DNA of 64,000 nucleotides from assembly GCA_035604195.1 (NCBI GenBank), contig DATNIY010000050.1:36-64035 (forward strand), read 5' to 3'. Each line of letters starts with the position of its first letter. Position 1 is the first letter of the stretch. The stretch is from Stellaceae bacterium (GTDB lineage Bacteria; Pseudomonadota; Alphaproteobacteria; ATCC43930; CGMCC-115725). Below, one piece after another: positions 1-46,392 of the stretch. The notes under the pieces were generated by a model. That model saw nothing but the letters and a program-made list of their open reading frames with translations. It had not been told where the DNA came from and ran no database searches. Made by a program: the position numbers and the translations under genes.

Positions 1-313
<313 letters not shown>

Positions 314-5573: not shown

Positions 5574-6020
5574 TCAATACTGCTTATAGGGCAGGAACTT
5601 CCCGCTCATCGTCAGGCGCACGCGGTCGCCCTTCGGGTCGGGCTGGCGCTCCAGCGCCATGTCGAAATCGATGGCGCTCATGATGCCGTCGCCGAACTCC
5701 TCCTGGATCAACGCCTTCCAGGTCGTGCCATAGACCTGGACCAGCTCGTAGAAGCGGTAGATCAGCGGATCGGTCGGCACCGCCGTCGGCAGCGAGCCGC
5801 GGTAGGGCACCTCCTGCAGCAGCAGGACCTCGTCCTCGTCGAGGCCGAGGATGCGGCCCGCGTTCTCGGCCTCGCCCTTGCCGAGCTTCATCTGCCCCAA
5901 CAGCGCCGCCGTGTAATAGACCGGTGAGCCCGGGCCGATCTCGGCGGCGATGGCGCGCCAGGCGAGCTTCTTCCGGCGCTTGATGGCGACGATCTTCTCG
6001 GTGAGTTCTGCGCGATTCAT
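5574..6020 (-). CDS. cynS: Cyanate hydratase (cyanase)
   Basis: The translation from the internal ATG (MNRAELTEKIVAIKRRKKL...PTDPLIYRFYELVQVYGTTWKALIQEEFGDGIMSAIDF...GKFLPYKQY) is collinear with E. coli CynS as I remember it. The track ORF starts 13 codons further upstream. Confidence 0.85.
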   Translation of the reverse strand: MNRAELTEKIVAIKRRKKLAWRAIAAEIGPGSPVYYTAALLGQMKLGKGEAENAGRILGLDEDEVLLLQEVPYRGSLPTAVPTDPLIYRFYELVQVYGTTWKALIQEEFGDGIMSAIDFDMALERQPDPKGDRVRLTMSGKFLPYKQY

Positions 6021-6147
6021 GAGACACCTCCTCTCGCTGAGGAGGCAAGCATATCCCATGCCACGCGCTTGCCGCGATGAGCCCCTAATGGCCCGTCGCT
6101 GCTGCCCACAAACGAGGCAGCAGGTTCAGTCGCCGAGCAGCTTGCGC

Positions 6148-8742
<2,595 letters not shown>

Positions 8743-38129: not shown

Positions 38130-38771
38130 CTAAGGCCGCCTGACCTCTGCCACGCCGATCATGCTGTCGCGGGTGACGAGTTCGGCGAGCCGCGCCTCGT
38201 CCCAGCCGGCGGTGCCGGCGGGCCGCTCGGGCAGTACGAGGTAGCGCATGTCCGCCGTCGAATCATGGACGCGGACCTCGACATCGTCGGCGAGGGAGGT
38301 TCCGAACTCGGCGAGCACCGCGCGCGGCTCGTTGACGGCACGGCTGCGATAATTGCGGCTCTTGTACCAGTCGGGCGGACGGCCCAGCACCATGCGCGGA
38401 TAGCACGAGCACAGCGTGCAAACGATGAGGTTGTGCAGCTTCGGCTTGTTCTCGACGACGAGAAGATGCGTCGCGCCGACATCGATGCCGAGCTCGCGCG
38501 CGGCGGCGGAGCCGTCCGCGAGGAGGCGCGCCTTGTAGGCGGGATCGCTCCAGGCGCGGGCGACGATCCGCGCGCCCTGCGCCGGGGTGCGCGCGTCCAT
38601 CGCCTCGACGGCGCGGCGCACATCGCCGGCGCTGATGACGCCCTTCTCGATCAGAAGCTCGCGCACCGCGACTTCCATCACCTGATAGTAGCCGAGGCTC
38701 TCGTCCTGATCGGGCCGCGCCGGATGCGGATGGGCATGGTCGTGCGGGGTGTGCGTGTCTTGCTCGCTCAT
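38130..38771 (-). CDS. Nitrile hydratase family alpha subunit, cobalt-type metal site (equivalent to SCNase gamma / ToyJ)
   Basis: 213 aa from ATG 38771, which is preceded by GAGGA. The active-site claw is VCTLCSCYP (Thr = Co type). Flanking conservation includes AWSDPAYKARLLADG, PDWYKSRNYRSR, RYLVLPERPAGT and LVTRDSMIGV. Confidence 0.9.
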   Translation of the reverse strand: MSEQDTHTPHDHAHPHPARPDQDESLGYYQVMEVAVRELLIEKGVISAGDVRRAVEAMDARTPAQGARIVARAWSDPAYKARLLADGSAAARELGIDVGATHLLVVENKPKLHNLIVCTLCSCYPRMVLGRPPDWYKSRNYRSRAVNEPRAVLAEFGTSLADDVEVRVHDSTADMRYLVLPERPAGTAGWDEARLAELVTRDSMIGVAEVRRP

Positions 38772-38778
38772 GATGTCC

Positions 38779-39090
38779 TCACCCGGTCGGCTCGAGCCAG
38801 TGCTGGTAGATCTCGATCTCGATGGTGTCGTGCTGCGGGCCTCGGTAATCGGGCCACACATCGCGCTGACGGAAGCGCACGCGATAGAGCGGCTGCGCCG
38901 GCAGGCCAGGGCGGTTGAAGGCCAGTTCCTCGGGATTGGGAAAGGCGCCGCACAGCCGCTCGATCACGCCGACATGGCCGCGGATGTACCAGGGCGTGCG
39001 CAAATGGCCGGGCGGATCGGCGCGCCGCACGCCGACCCGATCGCCGGCACGGAAGCGCGCGGGCAGCGCGGCATTGGCGGGCGCGCTCAC
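38779..39090 (-). CDS. Nitrile hydratase beta subunit, C-terminal (SH3-like) half, as a separate ORF
   Basis: 103 aa from GTG 39090, which overlaps the upstream stop as GTGA. The sequence SAPANAALPARFRAGDRVGV...GHLRTPWYIRGHVGVIE...PLYRVRFRQRDVWP...EIYQHWLEP matches the C-terminal half of NHase beta. Confidence 0.8.
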   Translation of the reverse strand: MSAPANAALPARFRAGDRVGVRRADPPGHLRTPWYIRGHVGVIERLCGAFPNPEELAFNRPGLPAQPLYRVRFRQRDVWPDYRGPQHDTIEIEIYQHWLEPTG

Positions 39091-39395
39091 GGTTTGCGCG
39101 CCGCGCGCGCCTCGACCTCGGCCATCTTGCGGCCGAGCTCGTCGGCGGTGAGGACGCCACGCTGCAGCAAGACCTGCGTGATCGCGGCGATCCAGCGCTC
39201 GTAGTAGCTCATGGCGTCGTAGACATCCGGCGCCAGCGCCTCGATGGCGCGGCGGTTCTCGTCGACGCGCAGGAGATTGCGCTCGGTCAGCAGCATCATC
39301 AGCGCATCGACGCGCTTTTCCCAGAAGGCATAATCGTGCTCGGCACGCTCGATCGGGCCGGCGGGGAGCCCGCCCATGTCGTGATGGCCGCGCAT
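39087..39395 (-). CDS. Nitrile hydratase beta subunit, N-terminal half, as a separate ORF
   Basis: 102 aa from ATG 39395, which is preceded by GGGAGGAAGC. The sequence MRGHHDMGGLPAGPIERAEHDYAFWEKRVDAL...DENRRAIE...SYYERWIAAI matches the N-terminal half of NHase beta. Confidence 0.8.
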   Translation of the reverse strand: MRGHHDMGGLPAGPIERAEHDYAFWEKRVDALMMLLTERNLLRVDENRRAIEALAPDVYDAMSYYERWIAAITQVLLQRGVLTADELGRKMAEVEARAARKP

Positions 39396-39534
39396 GCTTC
39401 CTCCCGCTGTTGGCGCGAGTATCTCTCCGCCGTGCTGCCGAGGCAAGGCCGCGGCGGTTCCGCCGGCTTGACTCCGTCTCGAACACCATCAATATCAAGG
39501 GAAAGGCGGACTCGACGGGGAAAGGGCTTAGGAC

Positions 39535-40599
39535 ATGGCAAACGACGCAATGCTCTCGACCATCGATCGCGAGGCCGAGAAGGGGCGTGAGGATTTCTAT
39601 CGCCGCGCCGCCGCCAAGCATTTGGCGCCGCTCTGGACCCAGCTCGGCAGAATGGTCACGGAAGAGCCGGTTACCCCGTGCGTGCCGGCGCTATGGCGCT
39701 ACCAGGAGGTGCGGCCCTACCTCATGGAGGCGTGCCGGATCATCTCGACCGAGGAATCGCAGCGGCGGGTGATGACGCTCGAGAATCCCGGCCTGCCCGG
39801 GCAGCAGCGCATCACCCACAGCCTGTTCGGGGGCTTGCAGATCATTCTGCCGGGCGAGGTCGCGCCGGCCCATCGCCACACCGCCGCGGCGCTCCGCTTC
39901 ATCATCGAGGGCAAGAACGCCTACACCGCCGTCGCCGGCGAGCGAACCATCATGTCGCCGGGCGACTTCGTCATCACCCCGGCCATGGCCTGGCACGACC
40001 ACGGCAATGAGGGCCAGGGGCCGATGGTCTGGCTCGACGTGCTCGACCTGCACCTGGTCAATCTGATGGATGCGAGCTTCCTCGACAACTATCCCGAGGC
40101 CAGTCACCCCGTCACGCGCCCCCTAGGTGCGGCCGAGGCGGAGGCAGCGATGAATCTGGTCCCGGTCGATCAGGAATGGCATGGCCTGACCACGCCGATC
40201 TTCAACTATCCCTATGTGCGCACGCGTGAGACTTTGGAGCGGCTCCGCAAATTCCGCACCCCCGATCCCTATCACGGCATCAAGCTGAAATACATCAACC
40301 CGGTCAATGGCGGCTGGGCGATGCCGACGATCTCGACCTGGATGTCGCTGCTGCCCAAGGGGTTCCATACCCAGCCTTACCGCTCGACCGCGGGCACCGG
40401 CTTCGTTTGCGTCGAAGGGTCGGGGACGACGACGATCGGCGGCACGCGCCTCGAGTGGGGGCCGAAGGACATCTTCGTCGTGCCGAGTTGGCATTTCCAC
40501 GAGCACGCCGCATCCTCGGATGCGGTGCTGTTCAGCTTCTCCGATCAGGTCGTGCAGGAAAAGCTCGACTTCTTCCGCGAGCAGCGCGGCATCGCCTGA
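39535..40599 (+). CDS. Gentisate 1,2-dioxygenase-like bicupin
   Basis: 354 aa. The first cupin motif is GEVAPAHRHTAAALRFIIEG...WHDHGNEG and a second cupin domain follows. The N-terminal region LAPLWTQL...PALWRY is as in gentisate dioxygenases. Confidence 0.8.
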   Translation: MANDAMLSTIDREAEKGREDFYRRAAAKHLAPLWTQLGRMVTEEPVTPCVPALWRYQEVRPYLMEACRIISTEESQRRVMTLENPGLPGQQRITHSLFGGLQIILPGEVAPAHRHTAAALRFIIEGKNAYTAVAGERTIMSPGDFVITPAMAWHDHGNEGQGPMVWLDVLDLHLVNLMDASFLDNYPEASHPVTRPLGAAEAEAAMNLVPVDQEWHGLTTPIFNYPYVRTRETLERLRKFRTPDPYHGIKLKYINPVNGGWAMPTISTWMSLLPKGFHTQPYRSTAGTGFVCVEGSGTTTIGGTRLEWGPKDIFVVPSWHFHEHAASSDAVLFSFSDQVVQEKLDFFREQRGIA

Positions 40600-40910: not shown

Positions 40911-41699
40911 TCAGATCACGCCGCGCCGGCGCAGAAAGCGCGCCACGGCAGCGTTGGCGCCGGCGGCAAGCACGAACATGACGATCAGCACGGCATACAT
41001 CTCGGGCGTGCGGAACTGGGCATAGTACTGCATGATCAGGAAACCGAGGCCGCGGTTCGACATCTTGATCTCGCCCAGAAGCGTGCCGATGATGGCGACG
41101 CCGAGGCCGAGCCGTAGCCCGGTCGCGATCGGCGGCACCAGCGCCGGCAGGTAGATCTTGCGGATGGTCTGGCCGAGCGACAGGTTGAAGCTGCGCCCGA
41201 CCCGCAGCAGCACCGGATCGACCAGGCGCACGCCCGAGGCGACGCTCAAGGTCATCGGGAAAAAGCACGACAGCGTGCCCATCCCGATCTTCGATCCCGC
41301 GCCCACGCCGAACAGCACCATGAGGATCGGCAGAAAGACGATCTTCGGCGTCGGCGCGAGATACTGGATATAGGATTCAAAGGCCTTGCCGACGAAGCGG
41401 TTGGCGCCGAGCGCCAAGCCGATGGCGAGGCCGAGGGTTCCGCCGATGATGACGGAGACCGCGATTTCGTAGAGCGTCAGCTCGAGGTTGTAATAGAACA
41501 TGCCGCTCGTCACCAACTCGCCGAGCGCGGCGGCGATCTTGAACGAGGACGGCACGACGCCCTCGTAGAGCAGCCCCGAGGCGGCCGCCCCCTCCCACAG
41601 GAGCCACAGCCCAAGCAATGTCGCAATGCGGATGGGCGTGACGAGCGAGCGCGCCGGGCGCCGCCGCGCCGGGCTCCGGACTAAACTGGCCTCAGCCAT
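40911..41699 (-). CDS. ABC transporter permease (NitT/TauT family)
   Basis: 262 aa from ATG 41699, in the frame of track ORF 40911-42362. It has six hydrophobic segments and an EAA-like loop (VGRSFNLSLGQTIRKIYLPALVP). Confidence 0.85.
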   Translation of the reverse strand: MAEASLVRSPARRRPARSLVTPIRIATLLGLWLLWEGAAASGLLYEGVVPSSFKIAAALGELVTSGMFYYNLELTLYEIAVSVIIGGTLGLAIGLALGANRFVGKAFESYIQYLAPTPKIVFLPILMVLFGVGAGSKIGMGTLSCFFPMTLSVASGVRLVDPVLLRVGRSFNLSLGQTIRKIYLPALVPPIATGLRLGLGVAIIGTLLGEIKMSNRGLGFLIMQYYAQFRTPEMYAVLIVMFVLAAGANAAVARFLRRRGVI

Positions 41700-42478
41700 T
41701 TCTCGAGCTTCTCGGTGATGTAGAAGAAGGCGACGCTGGTCAAGATGACGAAGAAGATCGCGCCGTACATCTTCGGAATTTCCCAGCGTTGGGCGAGATC
41801 GTCGATGAGCTCGCCCATGCCGCCGAAATTGATCAGGAACTCGACTCCGACGACGCTGATGAGCGCGAAGATGAGGCCCAGACGCACGCCGTTGGCGATG
41901 GTCGGCACCGCCGCCGGCAGCATGATTTTCCAGAACAGCGTGCCCTGGCCCAAGCCGTAGCTGCGCCCGACATCGATGAGCACGCGCCGCGTGCCGTCGA
42001 GCCCTTCCTTGGTCTTGAGCACGACCGGCGTGAGCCCGGTCAGGGTGCTCATCGCGACGATGGTGGCGCTGCTCCGCCCGAAGATGACGAGGAAAAGCGG
42101 ATAGAGCAGCACCAAGGGCGCCGCGGCGCAGCTCGCGACCCAGGTCTCGTAGGCGGGCCCGGCCCAGGGGCTCCGATGCAGCCACCAGCCGATCGGCACG
42201 CCCAGGCACATCGCGAGGCCGGCGGCGCAGAAGGTTTCGAGGAAGGTGCGCAGCAGGGCCTCGAAGAGGCCCTCGTCCTCGATCAGGCCGGGGAAGCTTT
42301 GGACGATCGCCGAGGGCGCCGGGGCGACGAAGGGGCTGACCCAGCCGATATCGACCGCCCATTCCCAGATCAGGCCGAGAAGCAACAGCGTCGCCACGCC
42401 GAACAGCGTCGGGCCGGCGCTCTGCAGGACGGCGCGGCGGGTGGTGCTTGCGGCGTTCGCGGCAACGGCCATCGCCAC
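41681..42478 (-). CDS. ABC transporter permease (NitT/TauT family), second copy
   Basis: 265 aa with an EAA-like loop (VGRSYGLGQGTLFWKIMLPAAVP). It overlaps the next permease by 19 nt. Confidence 0.85.
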   Translation of the reverse strand: MAMAVAANAASTTRRAVLQSAGPTLFGVATLLLLGLIWEWAVDIGWVSPFVAPAPSAIVQSFPGLIEDEGLFEALLRTFLETFCAAGLAMCLGVPIGWWLHRSPWAGPAYETWVASCAAAPLVLLYPLFLVIFGRSSATIVAMSTLTGLTPVVLKTKEGLDGTRRVLIDVGRSYGLGQGTLFWKIMLPAAVPTIANGVRLGLIFALISVVGVEFLINFGGMGELIDDLAQRWEIPKMYGAIFFVILTSVAFFYITEKLEKWLRPV

Positions 42479-42479
42479 C

Positions 42480-43442
42480 TCACTTCCCCGGCTTGATGAT
42501 GGTGATCAGGCCGGCGATCTGGTCGGGCTTCATCGGCTGCGGAATGCGCTTGAATTCGTAGGCATCGCGCAGAGTCTGATCGAGGCCCTTGATCTCATAG
42601 GGCTGCAGCGAAGATTTCGGATAGAACTTGCGCGCCTCGACCGCGAGCTCGTGCGAGACATGCAAGCCGTCGGCGTAATAATCGGTGGCCTTGGGGTTGG
42701 CATAGGCCCAGTCGATCGACTTCTGATAGGCGCGAGCGAAGCGTTCGACCACGTCGCGGTGCTGCTGCAGCAGCGCAAGCCGAACGACATTGACGCGCAC
42801 CGTTTGGTTGCGCAGCGCCGGCACGTCGCTGCCATGCGCGAGGATGACGAGCTTGCCCGCCTTTACCTGATCGAGCGGAATCGGCGGCGCCGCCCAGCCG
42901 ACATCGATCTGTCCCGACATGACCTGGGTGAGCGTGCCGGGAATGCCGCCCGTCGGCGTCGGCTTCGCGGTGGTGACGCCGTTGTATTTCAACAGCGACA
43001 AGAGCACGAGATTCGACGACGAGCCGGGGGCCGAGAAGGCCACGCTCTTGCCGGCGGCGTCCTTCAGCGACTTCATGCCGCTGTCGGCCTTGGCATACCA
43101 GAAGAGATCGGGCACGCCGGTCCATTCCGCGGAGATGATGCGAATGGGCGCGCCCTTGACATAGGCCGAGATGATGCCGAGCGTTCCCGTGCCGATCGCC
43201 ATGTCGGCGCTGCCGGAAATGACGGCCTGCTCGTTGTTGGCGCCGCCTTCGCTGTAGATCTGCTCGATGTCGAGCCCCTCAGCCTTGAAGATGCCCTCCT
43301 TGACGCCGAAATCGACCATCGAGACGTCCCACAGGCCCTTCTGGGGAATGACGACCTTCAGCGATTCCGCTTGCGCCGCGCCAGTGACTGCGGCGGCGAG
43401 GGCCACGCCCAGCCCGAAGACGACGGCTCTGCCCATCTTCAT
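42480..43442 (-). CDS. ABC transporter substrate-binding protein, NMT1/THI5 (SsuA/TauA)-like
   Basis: 320 aa with a signal peptide (MKMGRAVVFGLGVALAAAVTGAAQA). Its size and sequence are typical of NitT/TauT-family binding proteins. Confidence 0.8.
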   Translation of the reverse strand: MKMGRAVVFGLGVALAAAVTGAAQAESLKVVIPQKGLWDVSMVDFGVKEGIFKAEGLDIEQIYSEGGANNEQAVISGSADMAIGTGTLGIISAYVKGAPIRIISAEWTGVPDLFWYAKADSGMKSLKDAAGKSVAFSAPGSSSNLVLLSLLKYNGVTTAKPTPTGGIPGTLTQVMSGQIDVGWAAPPIPLDQVKAGKLVILAHGSDVPALRNQTVRVNVVRLALLQQHRDVVERFARAYQKSIDWAYANPKATDYYADGLHVSHELAVEARKFYPKSSLQPYEIKGLDQTLRDAYEFKRIPQPMKPDQIAGLITIIKPGK

Positions 43443-43520
43443 CCTCCCCTGCTTGGGACATAGTGGCCGAACTCGGCAGCGGGCCGCAAGATCGTCCTGC
43501 CGCGGCGCCTGCCGCCGCGC

Positions 43521-44366
43521 TCAGTGCCGCGGCGGGCGGGCGGCCATGGCGGCTTCGCTGTCGGATAGGCCCTTCGTTGCCTCCTCGCGCAAATCGCTCC
43601 AGATGGTCGCGACGTAGTGGCCGAACTCGGGCGAGCTCACGATCTCGGAGGTGCGCGGCCGCGGCAGATCGATGGCGACGATCCGCTTCACCTGCCCCGG
43701 CCGGTAGGTCATCACCATGACGCGGTCGGCAAGCTGCACCGCCTCGGCGATGTTGTGGGTGATGAGCAGGGTGGTCTGGTCGAGCGCCTGCTTGATCTGC
43801 AGCACCTTGTCGCCGAGCAGGAGCCGCGTCTGCTCGTCGAGCGCGGCGAAGGGCTCGTCCATCAGTAGGATCTTGGGCTGGAAGGCCAAAGTCCGGGCGA
43901 TCGCGGTGCGCTGGCGCATGCCGCCCGACATCTCCGCGGGATAGCGGTTCTCGAAACCGTCGAGCCCAACGAGCCGGACCAAGTCGCGCGCGCGGGCGAG
44001 GCGCTCGGCCTTGGGCACGCCCGCGGTCTCCAGCGGGAAGGCGACGTTCTCGATCGTGGTGCGCCAGGGGAAGGTCGATTCCTCCTGGAACACCATGCCG
44101 ATGGCGTGGTGCGAGCCGCTCACCGCCTGGCCGTCCACCAGGATGCGTCCGTCGAAGTCGTCGATGAGCCCGCCGACGATGTTGAACAAAGTGGATTTGC
44201 CGCAGCCCGACGGGCCGATGAGCGCGACGAACTCGCCGTGCCGCACATCGAGCGATACGTCCTGCAGCGCGGTGAGCGGTCCCTCGGCCGTGGTGAAGAC
44301 CTTGGTGACATGCTCGACCGAGAGGAGGACCGGGCGCGCGGCACTGGGCGCCTCGCTGGCTGGCAT
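43521..44366 (-). CDS. ABC transporter ATP-binding protein (NitT/TauT family)
   Basis: It has Walker A (GPSGCGKST), the signature MSGGMRQR and Walker B (LLMDEPF). Confidence 0.9.
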   Translation of the reverse strand: MPASEAPSAARPVLLSVEHVTKVFTTAEGPLTALQDVSLDVRHGEFVALIGPSGCGKSTLFNIVGGLIDDFDGRILVDGQAVSGSHHAIGMVFQEESTFPWRTTIENVAFPLETAGVPKAERLARARDLVRLVGLDGFENRYPAEMSGGMRQRTAIARTLAFQPKILLMDEPFAALDEQTRLLLGDKVLQIKQALDQTTLLITHNIAEAVQLADRVMVMTYRPGQVKRIVAIDLPRPRTSEIVSSPEFGHYVATIWSDLREEATKGLSDSEAAMAARPPRH

Positions 44367-44379
44367 CGGGCCTGGCGCT

Positions 44380-46200
44380 TCAGGGCGCGGGCGCGGCGCG
44401 GGTCATGGCGCTTTGCGTCGCTGGGTCGTAGCCGGGCTCGACGCGGACATCGACGACCGCAACCTTGCCGTCGCCGACGGCACGCACGGCCTGCTTGAGC
44501 GTCTCGCCGAGCTCGCCCAGCTTGGCGACGGGGCCGAAGCCTTCGGCTCCCTGCGCCCGCGCGATCAGGGCGAGGTCGATGGCGGGATCGATCATTTGTT
44601 GGCCGATCCATTTGTTGGCGACGGGCCGGCCGCGCTCGCGCGCCATGCGCTCCTGATGCAGCTCGTCATTGTAGAAGGAGCGGTTGTTGGCGATGACGAT
44701 GAGGAGCGGGATGCGGTAATGCACCGCCGTCCAAACCGCGTTGTTGCCCATCATGAAATCGCCGTCGCCCAAGACCGCGACGGGAAGCCGCCCGCTGCCC
44801 TTGAGCGCCAGCGCCGCGCCCACCGTCATGCCCGGGCCCGAGCCGACCCCGCCGCCGCCATCCGCGCCGAGGAAGTCGAGCGGGTGCCGAATCGGCCAGA
44901 GGTGTCCCGCCCAGGAAAGCGAATGGCGGATGAGCGTCGGCTTCAGCCCTGCCGTCGCCTCCTGCAGGGCGCGGGCGAGGAGCGGCACGGCGATGGGACC
45001 GGCGGCATCACCTGGGGCGACGGCGGGCGCGGGAATGGGCTTGCGGCCGGGCCAGGCCGGCGCCTTGCGCCCGCCCAACCGCTTTATCGCCGCGAGCAAT
45101 GCCGCGACCGTCGGATCGGGCTGCGCCATGAGATATAGATCGGCCGGCGCCAGACCCTGGTGATCCATGCTCCAGCCGTTATGCACATGCTGGTCGAGCG
45201 AGACGTTGATCACGGTCGAGCCGACGGGCTCGCCCTTCCAGGCGCCCTTGAGCACGCTCGCGAGATCGACCCAGTCGAGGCTCAGCACGACGTCCGCTTG
45301 GCGCATTAGCTCGGCGGTAGGGCCGCCGGCGAAAGTGGCAGCGGGCACGCCCAACAGCGGATGGTCGGTCGGGAAGGCGGCGGCCTGCTTCAGGTCGGTC
45401 AGCACCACCGCGCCCAGCGCCTCGACCAATTGCACGCGCTGCGCCCAGGCATCCTCGCCGCGCGAGACGCGGCCCATGAGGATGAGCGGACGCTCGGCGG
45501 CGATGAGCTTTCGCGCCGCCGCTTCGGCCAGGCTCGGATCGGGCGCCGCCGCCGGCGGCGGCAGGAAGCGCTTGGCATCCGGCAGCGGCGGCGCCTCGAG
45601 CTTCGCTTCCTGAAGCGCCGCGTCGAAGACGACATAGGTCGGCCCACAGGGCGCGGTCGCGGCGATCTGGCGCGCGCGCAGAATCGACTCATAGGCCGCG
45701 GCGAGCGAGGCCGGCTGGTCGTCCCATTTGGTATAGTTGCGGACGAGCGCGCCCTGGTCCTTGGCGGTGTGGATCCAATCGATCCAGGGACGGCGCTTGG
45801 CCGCATCGACCGGCCCGGTCGCGCCGAGCAGCACCAGCGGCACGCGGTCGCACCAGGCGTTGAACACCGCCATGGTCGCGTGCATCAACCCGACGTTGCT
45901 GTGCACGATGGCGAGCATCGGCTTTTCCGTCACCTTGGCCCAGCCATGCGCGATCGCGACCGCGGTCTCCTCGTGCAGGCAGAGCAGCATCTGCGGCGTG
46001 TCGTTGCCGAGCCCGTTCACCAGGCTGTCGTGCAGCCCGCGGTAGCTCGCTCCCGGATTCAGCGCGACATAGGGAATGTCGAGCTGGCGCAGCATCCGGG
46101 CGATGGCGTCGCTGCCCCAGCCCGCATTGTTCTCCGAGGGCAGCGGACGTTCGATCCCCTGCGGCTCGTTCGACAGATCCGGTTGTTTCATATGGCGCAT
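44380..46200 (-). CDS. Thiamine-diphosphate-binding enzyme (acetolactate synthase / benzoylformate decarboxylase superfamily), substrate unknown
   Basis: ~606 aa from ATG 46200 (or 46191). The N-terminal PYR domain reads NPGASYRGLHDSL...LHEETAVAIAHGWA. The C-terminal PP domain has GDGDF...NN (AVLGDGDFMMGNNAVW...VIANNRSFYN). Confidence 0.8.
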   Translation of the reverse strand: MRHMKQPDLSNEPQGIERPLPSENNAGWGSDAIARMLRQLDIPYVALNPGASYRGLHDSLVNGLGNDTPQMLLCLHEETAVAIAHGWAKVTEKPMLAIVHSNVGLMHATMAVFNAWCDRVPLVLLGATGPVDAAKRRPWIDWIHTAKDQGALVRNYTKWDDQPASLAAAYESILRARQIAATAPCGPTYVVFDAALQEAKLEAPPLPDAKRFLPPPAAAPDPSLAEAAARKLIAAERPLILMGRVSRGEDAWAQRVQLVEALGAVVLTDLKQAAAFPTDHPLLGVPAATFAGGPTAELMRQADVVLSLDWVDLASVLKGAWKGEPVGSTVINVSLDQHVHNGWSMDHQGLAPADLYLMAQPDPTVAALLAAIKRLGGRKAPAWPGRKPIPAPAVAPGDAAGPIAVPLLARALQEATAGLKPTLIRHSLSWAGHLWPIRHPLDFLGADGGGGVGSGPGMTVGAALALKGSGRLPVAVLGDGDFMMGNNAVWTAVHYRIPLLIVIANNRSFYNDELHQERMARERGRPVANKWIGQQMIDPAIDLALIARAQGAEGFGPVAKLGELGETLKQAVRAVGDGKVAVVDVRVEPGYDPATQSAMTRAAPAP

Positions 46201-46392
46201 CCCTGGATTTGCCGCGGGCTTCGCCGCGGCGCTTGGTTGCCGCGATATTGCAAGGGGGCAGGGCCGATGGCAAAGAAATTCCTGGCACAGCTTTCGCGCC
46301 CGATGCGACCGCTTGACCCCGGCGCGTGTCTGGGCCATGTCGCTGGCGCGACAATCCGTGCGGCTACGAGGCCGGTCTCACAGGTAGTGGCG

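Follow-up and report, generated by a model that had tools for sequence, protein, structure and literature searches.

The window analysed here, a stretch of 64,000 nucleotides (nt) from a Stellaceae metagenome-assembled genome (MAG), carries on its minus strand an operon of three tightly packed genes (38130 to 39395) that very probably encodes an activator-independent nitrile hydratase (NHase) of the cobalt type (Co-type) made of three subunits. The first gene, betaN (open reading frame (ORF) 1; 39087..39395; 102 amino acids (aa), 11.7 kDa), begins with MRGHHDMGG and encodes the N-terminal helical half of an NHase beta subunit; the second, betaC (ORF2; 38779..39090; 103 aa, 11.8 kDa, with a GTG start), encodes its SH3-like C-terminal half; the third, alpha (ORF3; 38130..38771; 213 aa, 23.6 kDa), encodes an alpha subunit with a Co-type metal claw. 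A Shine-Dalgarno-like GGGAGG (39400..39405, minus strand) is located 4 nt upstream of the betaN ATG. The start codon of betaC overlaps the TGA stop of betaN in a GTGA (39087..39090, minus strand) which, judged from the letters, indicates translational coupling of the two genes. The alpha ORF starts 7 nt past the betaC stop, and a second Shine-Dalgarno-like motif, GAGGA (38776..38780, minus strand), overlaps this stop and lies 4 nt upstream of the alpha ATG. The coordinates and lengths of the ORFs, the GTGA overlap, the 7-nt gap, the GAGGA and the VCTLCSC claw had been listed in a first-pass annotation of the window, and all proved correct on re-reading the sequence. The three proteins are already present in NCBI records, as 'hypothetical protein' (HXP30612.1), 'SH3-like domain-containing protein' (HXP30611.1, the same 103-aa sequence as betaC) and 'nitrile hydratase subunit alpha' (HXP30610.1). 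More generally, the public names of the beta halves are inconsistent and include 'hypothetical protein', 'SH3-like domain-containing protein', 'nitrile hydratase subunit beta', 'nitrile hydratase' and 'ScnB-like protein'.

All three proteins can be assigned to NHase families. The Pfam matches are NHase_beta_N for betaN (PF21006; 9.6e-22, 77.7 bits), NHase_beta_C for betaC (PF02211; 1.8e-22, 80 bits) and NHase_alpha for alpha (PF02979; 8.2e-82, 273.5 bits against a cut-off of 27.2). The alpha protein also clears the equivalog cut-off of the NCBIfam model TIGR01323 nitrile_alph (258.3 against 249.85 bits). The model TIGR03888 nitrile_beta, with its 226 positions, is matched by betaN over positions 1-101 (72.5 bits) and by betaC over positions 132-225 (69.1 bits), the two halves being encoded by two ORFs in different frames and not by the canonical single-chain beta gene (~220 aa). 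The top PDB matches of the three ORFs are classical Co-type NHases (Pseudomonas putida 3QXE, Bacillus 1V29/2DPP and Pseudonocardia 1IRE), and chains of thiocyanate hydrolase (SCNase) rank below them in each case. The best PDB match of betaN is the beta subunit of the P. putida Co-NHase (residues 1-94), those of betaC map to beta residues ~124-228 and those of alpha are Co-NHase alpha subunits, with E-values as low as 6.4e-61. The first-pass annotation had also considered that ORF1 could group with the NHase activator proteins. This was rejected: ORF1 scores only 21.5 bits with the activator model TIGR03889 nitrile_acc (cut-off 46 bits), whereas the models of the beta N-domain, TIGR03888 and PF21006, give it 72.5-77.7 bits, and in tblastn searches it is matched by Pantoea NthB and not by the Pantoea accessory protein. 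The alpha protein scores above the cut-off of the NHLP-leader domain TIGR03793 as well (58.9 against 50.9 bits). We discounted this score because NHLP leaders derive from NHase alpha subunits, and a precursor of a ribosomally synthesized and post-translationally modified peptide (RiPP) was rejected in view of the full-length alpha, its intact claw, the two beta halves and the lack of RiPP maturation genes among the annotated neighbours. The alpha N-terminus is rich in histidine (HTPHDHAHPHP, within residues 1-25, 38697-38771), and this end is also His-rich in the family consensus and in the other alpha sequences inspected, those of Rhizobium, Streptomyces, P. putida and scnC.

The residues expected around the metal site are all in place. 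Conservation was evaluated in an alignment of 76-77 family members, with residue positions mapped through PDB alignments. In betaN, Arg48 (corresponding to beta-Arg52 of the Pseudonocardia enzyme, PtNHase), Tyr64, Tyr65 and Trp68 are invariant, as are His29 and Arg31 (corresponding to beta-Arg157) in betaC. The alpha claw VCTLCSCYPR (residues 117-126, 38394..38423, minus strand), in which Cys118, Cys121 and Cys123 are the metal ligands, is invariant in 80 out of 80 relatives. In this claw, Thr and Tyr (CTLCSCY) characterize Co-type enzymes, and Ser and Thr those of the Fe-type; alpha carries the Co-type signature and is predicted to contain a cobalt site. The first-pass annotation had pointed out the two beta Arg equivalents and the YY..W motif and had remarked that the enzyme looked functional, a view strengthened by the intact domains and by the invariance of the catalytic-site residues among relatives.

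Next to these shared features, the putative substrate pocket exhibits two positions that differ from those of the classical NHases. The motif CTLCSCYPR, with Arg after the claw, is present in all 80 related alpha subunits, in five split-beta or scn plasmid clusters and in all 120 database homologues of the alpha subunit encoded by a Streptomyces plasmid. The four classical NHases that were checked (P. putida, Pseudonocardia, Bacillus and Pantoea) have CTLCSCYPW. This alpha Arg126 aligns with gamma-Arg136 of SCNase (2dd4_C) and with alpha-Trp116 of PtNHase. The PDB entry 3vyh_A corresponds to the Pseudonocardia alpha subunit with a Trp to Arg change at the equivalent position, which suggests that crystallographers apparently treated this residue as a selectivity determinant; 3vyg is presumably the reciprocal SCNase mutant. 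The second position is that of SCNase beta-Arg90, which was confirmed in the 2dd4_B sequence (EERRRKQN) and which aligns with Phe51 of PtNHase and P. putida NHase. Its equivalent in betaN is Asn47 (codon 47, 39255-39257), a residue found in no other relative, 69 out of 77 having Leu. Since the same protein recurs in independent assemblies, Asn47 is a real feature of the protein, and it could shift the substrate preference. The pocket would be composed of hydrophobic beta residues (Val44 and Trp68, together with Leu47 in most relatives and Asn47 here) and of the clade-specific alpha Arg126.

The division of the beta subunit into two polypeptides is ancient and reproducible. A scan with the alpha subunit over one genome per GTDB species retrieved 80 loci (61-81% identity), mostly labelled Proteobacteria (Stellaceae, Dongiaceae, Burkholderiales, Rhodobacterales such as Jannaschia, Litoreibacter and Roseovarius, Vineibacter terrae and others), which span several proteobacterial orders and include a few MAGs labelled as other phyla. 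At all 74 loci where both halves were present, betaN and betaC were located in different stop-to-stop ORFs, without a single fused beta (0/74), and almost all of these loci have the gene order betaN-betaC-alpha. The betaN stop and the betaC start overlap by 4 nt (ATGA or GTGA) in the largest group, and overlaps of 1, 8 or 14 nt account for most of the other loci; this variation in length makes programmed frameshifting unlikely and translational coupling the simpler explanation. Stand-alone beta-N proteins of ~100 aa number in the thousands. The best 120 betaN homologues in a collection of 5.8 billion proteins are all 98-141 aa long and contain PF21006 alone. Among betaN representatives at 50% identity (1,842 matches), 119 of the best 150 have no more than 150 aa, and a betaC domain is also present in only ~5 of these 150. 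An alternative would be that the operon is a decayed classical NHase whose single beta gene was interrupted at 39087-39090, by a frameshift or by an indel in the assembly, as could be imagined from two halves that are adjacent, lie in different frames and together span residues 1-98 and 121-217 of Pantoea NthB. However, six independent assemblies, obtained from different samples, agree at every base (100% identity) of a 61-bp stretch spanning the betaN/betaC junction. The identical betaN protein occurs on seven contigs, six of which (from four JGI metagenomes and two SRA runs) exhibit the 102/103/213-aa layout. Together with the separate ORFs and varied overlaps in relatives, the invariant catalytic residues and the biochemical activity of the split enzymes ToyJKL and AnhDEA (PMC7329996), these identities make decay extremely improbable. 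The two checks that the first-pass annotation had proposed here, conservation of the split in related genomes and a search for an indel in the region 39080-39100, both came out in favour of a genuine split, the second by comparison of assemblies instead of read mapping.

Three split-beta systems have been characterised: thiocyanate hydrolase, ToyJKL and AnhD-AnhE-AnhA of Streptomyces canus. The first-pass annotation had named only the first two as characterised; the S. canus enzyme adds a third, and the thousands of stand-alone beta-N proteins show that the architecture is not rare. The NHase of S. canus CGMCC 13662 (ScNHase) is a Co-type enzyme with the gene order anhD (beta N-half), anhE (beta C-half) and anhA; its genome contains no activator gene and AnhD acts as a swapping chaperone (PMC7329996). 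The operon described here has the same betaN-betaC-alpha order and the same Co-type signature, and no activator gene was found at its locus; the S. canus host differs in being actinobacterial. ToyJKL of Streptomyces rimosus is an (alpha-beta-gamma)2 complex with subunit masses of 21.2, 10 and 11.4 kDa (PMC8574189), the same size class as the 23.6, 11.7 and 11.8 kDa subunits in the present case. It acts on a deazapurine nucleoside and is encoded within the 13-gene toyA-M antibiotic cluster (PMC12648386), a context that is absent around our operon. According to Nelp et al. 2014, as cited in PMC7329996, the alpha subunit of ToyJKL alone can mature and catalyse. Thiocyanate hydrolase (Thiobacillus thioparus, 2DD4), also a cobalt enzyme, shares the order N-half, C-half, alpha-like subunit and the motif CTLCSCYPR, but its reaction is a hydrolysis to carbonyl sulfide (COS) and NH3 and its subunits are longer (157, 126 and 243 aa, as compared with 102, 103 and 213 aa here), in agreement with the size difference mentioned in the first-pass annotation. 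The classical Co-NHases (P. putida NRRL-18668, 3QXE; Pseudonocardia thermophila, 1IRE; and plasmid-borne nthAB of Pantoea) have in common with our three proteins the folds, the CTLCSCY claw, both beta arginines and the YYxxW motif; they differ by a single beta chain of ~206-233 aa, including a linker of ~20 residues that is missing here, and by Trp instead of Arg after the claw. Moreover, the Pantoea plasmid cluster encodes an aldoxime dehydratase, a transporter, an amidase, NthA, NthB, an accessory protein and CbtBA, and such partners are absent from our operon.

A protein search of plasmids detected annotated split-beta clusters on those of Streptomyces, Rhizobium, Burkholderia and Planktothrix, as well as an annotated scnC cluster in Roseomonas; the related plasmid clusters adjoin CbtAB or HoxN cobalt transporters. 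The identity of our proteins to those of the Streptomyces/Rhizobium clusters is 63/64% for alpha, 41/49% for betaN and 48/40% for betaC, as compared with 58%, 29% and 37%, respectively, for the annotated scn cluster. The Streptomyces cluster (L082), which also carries CTLCSCYPR, has the order betaN-betaC-alpha-aquaporin-hypothetical-HoxN. It differs from our operon by the aquaporin and HoxN genes, which are lacking here, and by a Lys at beta position 47, where our protein has Asn. In a neighbour-joining tree of alpha subunits, our sequence falls among the split-beta clusters (Streptomyces, Rhizobium, Burkholderia and Planktothrix), while the classical NHases and scnC branch separately. The enzyme groups with split-beta NHases, and not with classical NHases or thiocyanate hydrolase.

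The genomic context adds little to this picture. In tblastn searches, the 64-kb window contained no match to the NHase accessory protein, aldoxime dehydratase, CbtA/CbtB, HoxN or aquaporins, nor to the Pantoea amidase, a query that covers the amidase-signature family but neither aliphatic amidases nor formamidases. The same queries remained unmatched in the 80 related loci, save for a single amidase match, weak and partial, at the edge of a contig (L022). These results, together with the Pfam/NCBIfam annotation, confirm the earlier remark that neither an amidase nor an activator gene is located near the operon. None of the neighbours of the operon (gentisate 1,2-dioxygenase, methyltransferase, ATP-binding cassette (ABC) transporter, thiamine pyrophosphate (TPP) enzyme and glutamate dehydrogenase) is conserved beside it in the 80 loci. 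De novo clustering of the flanking ORFs, in which only a few neighbour families were named, revealed only lineage-specific housekeeping synteny (lipid A acyltransferase, DsbB, a Cys/Met pyridoxal phosphate enzyme, release factor 2 and acyl-CoA dehydrogenase). The operon is a self-contained three-gene unit whose context does not reveal the substrate. The first-pass annotation had listed thiocyanate, a deazapurine nitrile or something undescribed as candidate substrates. An Rfam scan of the window detected no riboswitch, its sole match being a 16S fragment, and neither a promoter nor a terminator was predicted on the minus strand.

With separate, conserved beta halves beside alpha and no accessory homologue, the operon falls into the three-subunit class as defined in PMC7329996. 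It very probably encodes an activator-independent three-subunit Co-type NHase, with a predicted protomer of alpha, betaN and betaC and a probable (alpha-betaN-betaC)2 composition. The core of the first-pass reading, a functional-looking Co-type member of the NHase family with a coupled split beta and the order betaN-betaC-alpha, stands on this basis. Several points nevertheless weigh against this assignment. The TIGR03888 cut-off of 152.2 bits is reached neither by either beta half nor by the sum of their scores (72.5 + 69.1). Likeness to the ToyJKL and AnhDEA sequences was judged through the Streptomyces plasmid homologue alone, and the search seeded with its alpha subunit returned no match named ToyJ or AnhA. 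The alpha tree is a simple neighbour-joining tree with few outgroups. In the absence of a conserved amidase, transporter or regulator, the context gives no support to a role in nitrile catabolism. Finally, alpha Arg126 is shared with thiocyanate hydrolase, the CTLCSCYPR motif being identical to that of the SCNase gamma subunit.

This last point raises the question of whether the operon could encode a thiocyanate hydrolase that converts SCN- into COS and NH3, with ORF1, ORF2 and ORF3 corresponding to ScnB, ScnA and ScnC. The operon resembles scnB-scnA-scnC in its split beta and in its gene order, RefSeq calls the betaN of one relative 'ScnB-like protein', and the Trp to Arg variant of PtNHase in 3vyh_A hints at a role of this position in selectivity. 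Work by Yamanaka and colleagues in 2013 is said to have given both beta-Arg90 and gamma-Arg136 of SCNase a role in substrate selectivity. Arg126 is not specific for SCNase, however, because it is present in every three-subunit NHase relative sampled, and beta-Arg90 has no equivalent here (Asn47, with Leu in 69 out of 77 relatives). In addition, alpha obtains 228.3 bits with the model TIGR03887 thiocyan_alph, below the cut-off of 291.45, although it passes that of nitrile_alph, the SCNase extensions are missing from all three subunits, and the identity to the scn cluster is below that to the Streptomyces and Rhizobium split-beta NHases. The low TIGR03887 score, the missing beta-Arg90 and the missing extensions make the assignment to thiocyanate hydrolase very unlikely, and thiocyanate, one of the substrates put forward in the first-pass annotation, is disfavoured on the same grounds. 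The three-subunit build and the similar subunit sizes (PMC8574189), combined with the absence of an activator, would also fit a deazapurine nitrile hydratase resembling ToyJKL and acting on toyocamycin, preQ0 or a related 7-cyano-7-deazapurine. We see only a slight chance for this possibility: ToyJKL belongs to the 13-gene toy cluster (PMC12648386), whereas no deazapurine biosynthesis or salvage genes are present among the annotated neighbours (32.5-46.3 kb), no neighbour family is conserved over the 80 loci (few of the families being named), and the clade is present in many Proteobacteria in housekeeping contexts. On the other side, preQ0 is a widespread metabolite.

Arg126 could also indicate an enzyme of the NHase superfamily with an undescribed class of substrate or reaction, for instance with beta-cyanoalanine or another small polar or anionic cyano compound as its substrate, which would be recognised by this residue. 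Such an activity would be in line with the clade-wide replacement of the Trp of the four classical NHases checked, with the lack of an amidase or aldoxime dehydratase partner in a housekeeping context and with the aquaporin linkage of related plasmid clusters, which hints at a small neutral solute. It is nonetheless improbable: the characterised Arg-bearing relatives take ordinary organic nitriles (toyocamycin, and acetamiprid and thiacloprid; PMC7329996), most relatives have an otherwise hydrophobic pocket, and there is no aquaporin near this operon or its 80 closest loci. A broader and tentative proposal, which we consider rather doubtful as a whole, is that the operon belongs to a large proteobacterial clade of activator-free three-subunit NHases in housekeeping contexts, in which Arg126 may tune the enzyme to a non-typical substrate and betaN serves as a built-in maturation chaperone. 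The substrate could then be a small polar or anionic cyano compound and not a typical hydrophobic nitrile.

Returning to the activator-independent three-subunit Co-type NHase, its functioning can be sketched from NHase chemistry and from the characterised systems. The three proteins would be produced by coupled translation and would combine into an alpha-betaN-betaC protomer, two of which probably form a dimer like that of ToyJKL. A low-spin Co(III) would be bound by Cys118, Cys121, Cys123 and backbone amides, with Cys121 oxidised to a sulfinate and Cys123 to a sulfenate, both presumably held by hydrogen bonds from Arg48 of betaN and Arg31 of betaC; the nitrile would bind the metal and be hydrated to the amide. 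Maturation without a dedicated activator could proceed either by self-maturation of alpha, by analogy with ToyJ, or with betaN acting as a swapping chaperone, by analogy with AnhD. More speculatively, the His-rich N-terminus of alpha may aid cobalt capture as a built-in metal-capture tail.

The architecture itself is not novel, because it has been characterised in three systems, the split is reflected in the separate Pfam N and C models, and it is widespread in genomes. Three-subunit NHases have been studied in only these three systems, yet their layout is the rule in a very large environmental set of proteobacteria. It is common in soil and marine bacteria, which makes the present operon a fairly ordinary find, and every sampled case combines an Arg after the metal claw with the absence of a dedicated activator. 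We suggest the combination of a split beta with CTLCSCYPR as a simple annotation rule, the halves being named inconsistently at present. For biocatalysis, the family may offer cobalt NHases that are easy to express and need no activator. A new kind of biology would come into view only if its physiological substrate proved unusual.

The annotated neighbours of the operon (32.5-46.3 kb; Pfam and NCBIfam) include genes encoding a NAD-glutamate dehydrogenase, a PmtA/OlsG-like methyltransferase, a gentisate 1,2-dioxygenase, an ABC transporter and a TPP enzyme. The gentisate 1,2-dioxygenase gene (39535-40599, plus strand; TIGR02272, 486.4 bits against a cut-off of 442.1) is divergent from the operon, at a distance of 139 bp, and has no adjoining genes of the maleylpyruvate pathway; beside the operon in the 80 loci, it gave one weak match. 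The region 40911-46338 (minus strand) encodes an SsuA/NMT1-type (sulfonate/nitrate-type) ABC transporter, composed of two permeases, a binding protein and an ATPase, followed by the TPP enzyme, a 652-aa protein that scores below every NCBIfam equivalog cut-off (best PRK08327, 221 against 456 bits). At its start (positions 1-313, minus strand), the window contains part of a bacterial 16S rRNA gene, truncated by the window edge (model positions 1-328, 282 bits).

Several relatives exhibit variants of the operon. In two alphaproteobacterial MAGs (L006, 5665-6648, and L013, ~5620-6600), betaN is fused in frame to alpha, in L006 as one 327-aa protein with both Pfam domains, and we could not detect betaC within ~6 kb of either fusion. 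Five betaN representatives of more than 300 aa (P0191, P0194, P0220, P0232 and P0236) resemble such a betaN-alpha fusion. One locus contains two tandem betaN copies (L058, 5030-5703) and another a small cupin gene between betaN and betaC (L040). In three loci (L069, L071 and L080), a gene is inserted between the beta halves. The insert of L071 encodes GH19-like and PG_binding_1 domains according to Pfam, which was run on this gene only, and the inserts of L069 and L080 look homologous to it. A permuted order, betaC-alpha-betaN, is found on the Rhizobium plasmid (L081), on the Burkholderia plasmid (L085) and in L009. The Rhizobium cluster is followed by an aquaporin gene and CbtB/CbtA, and the Burkholderia cluster by HoxN, with a cyanase gene nearby; the recurring aquaporin may be a hint of a small neutral substrate or product for those plasmid clusters. 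Finally, on a Roseomonas marmotae plasmid (L083, 4020-4871), beside an annotated scnC, the two beta-type halves of SCNase make up a single 283-aa protein, which contains the EERRR motif and a long low-complexity linker in addition to the NHase_beta_N and NHase_beta_C domains, so that the split has been reversed at least once.

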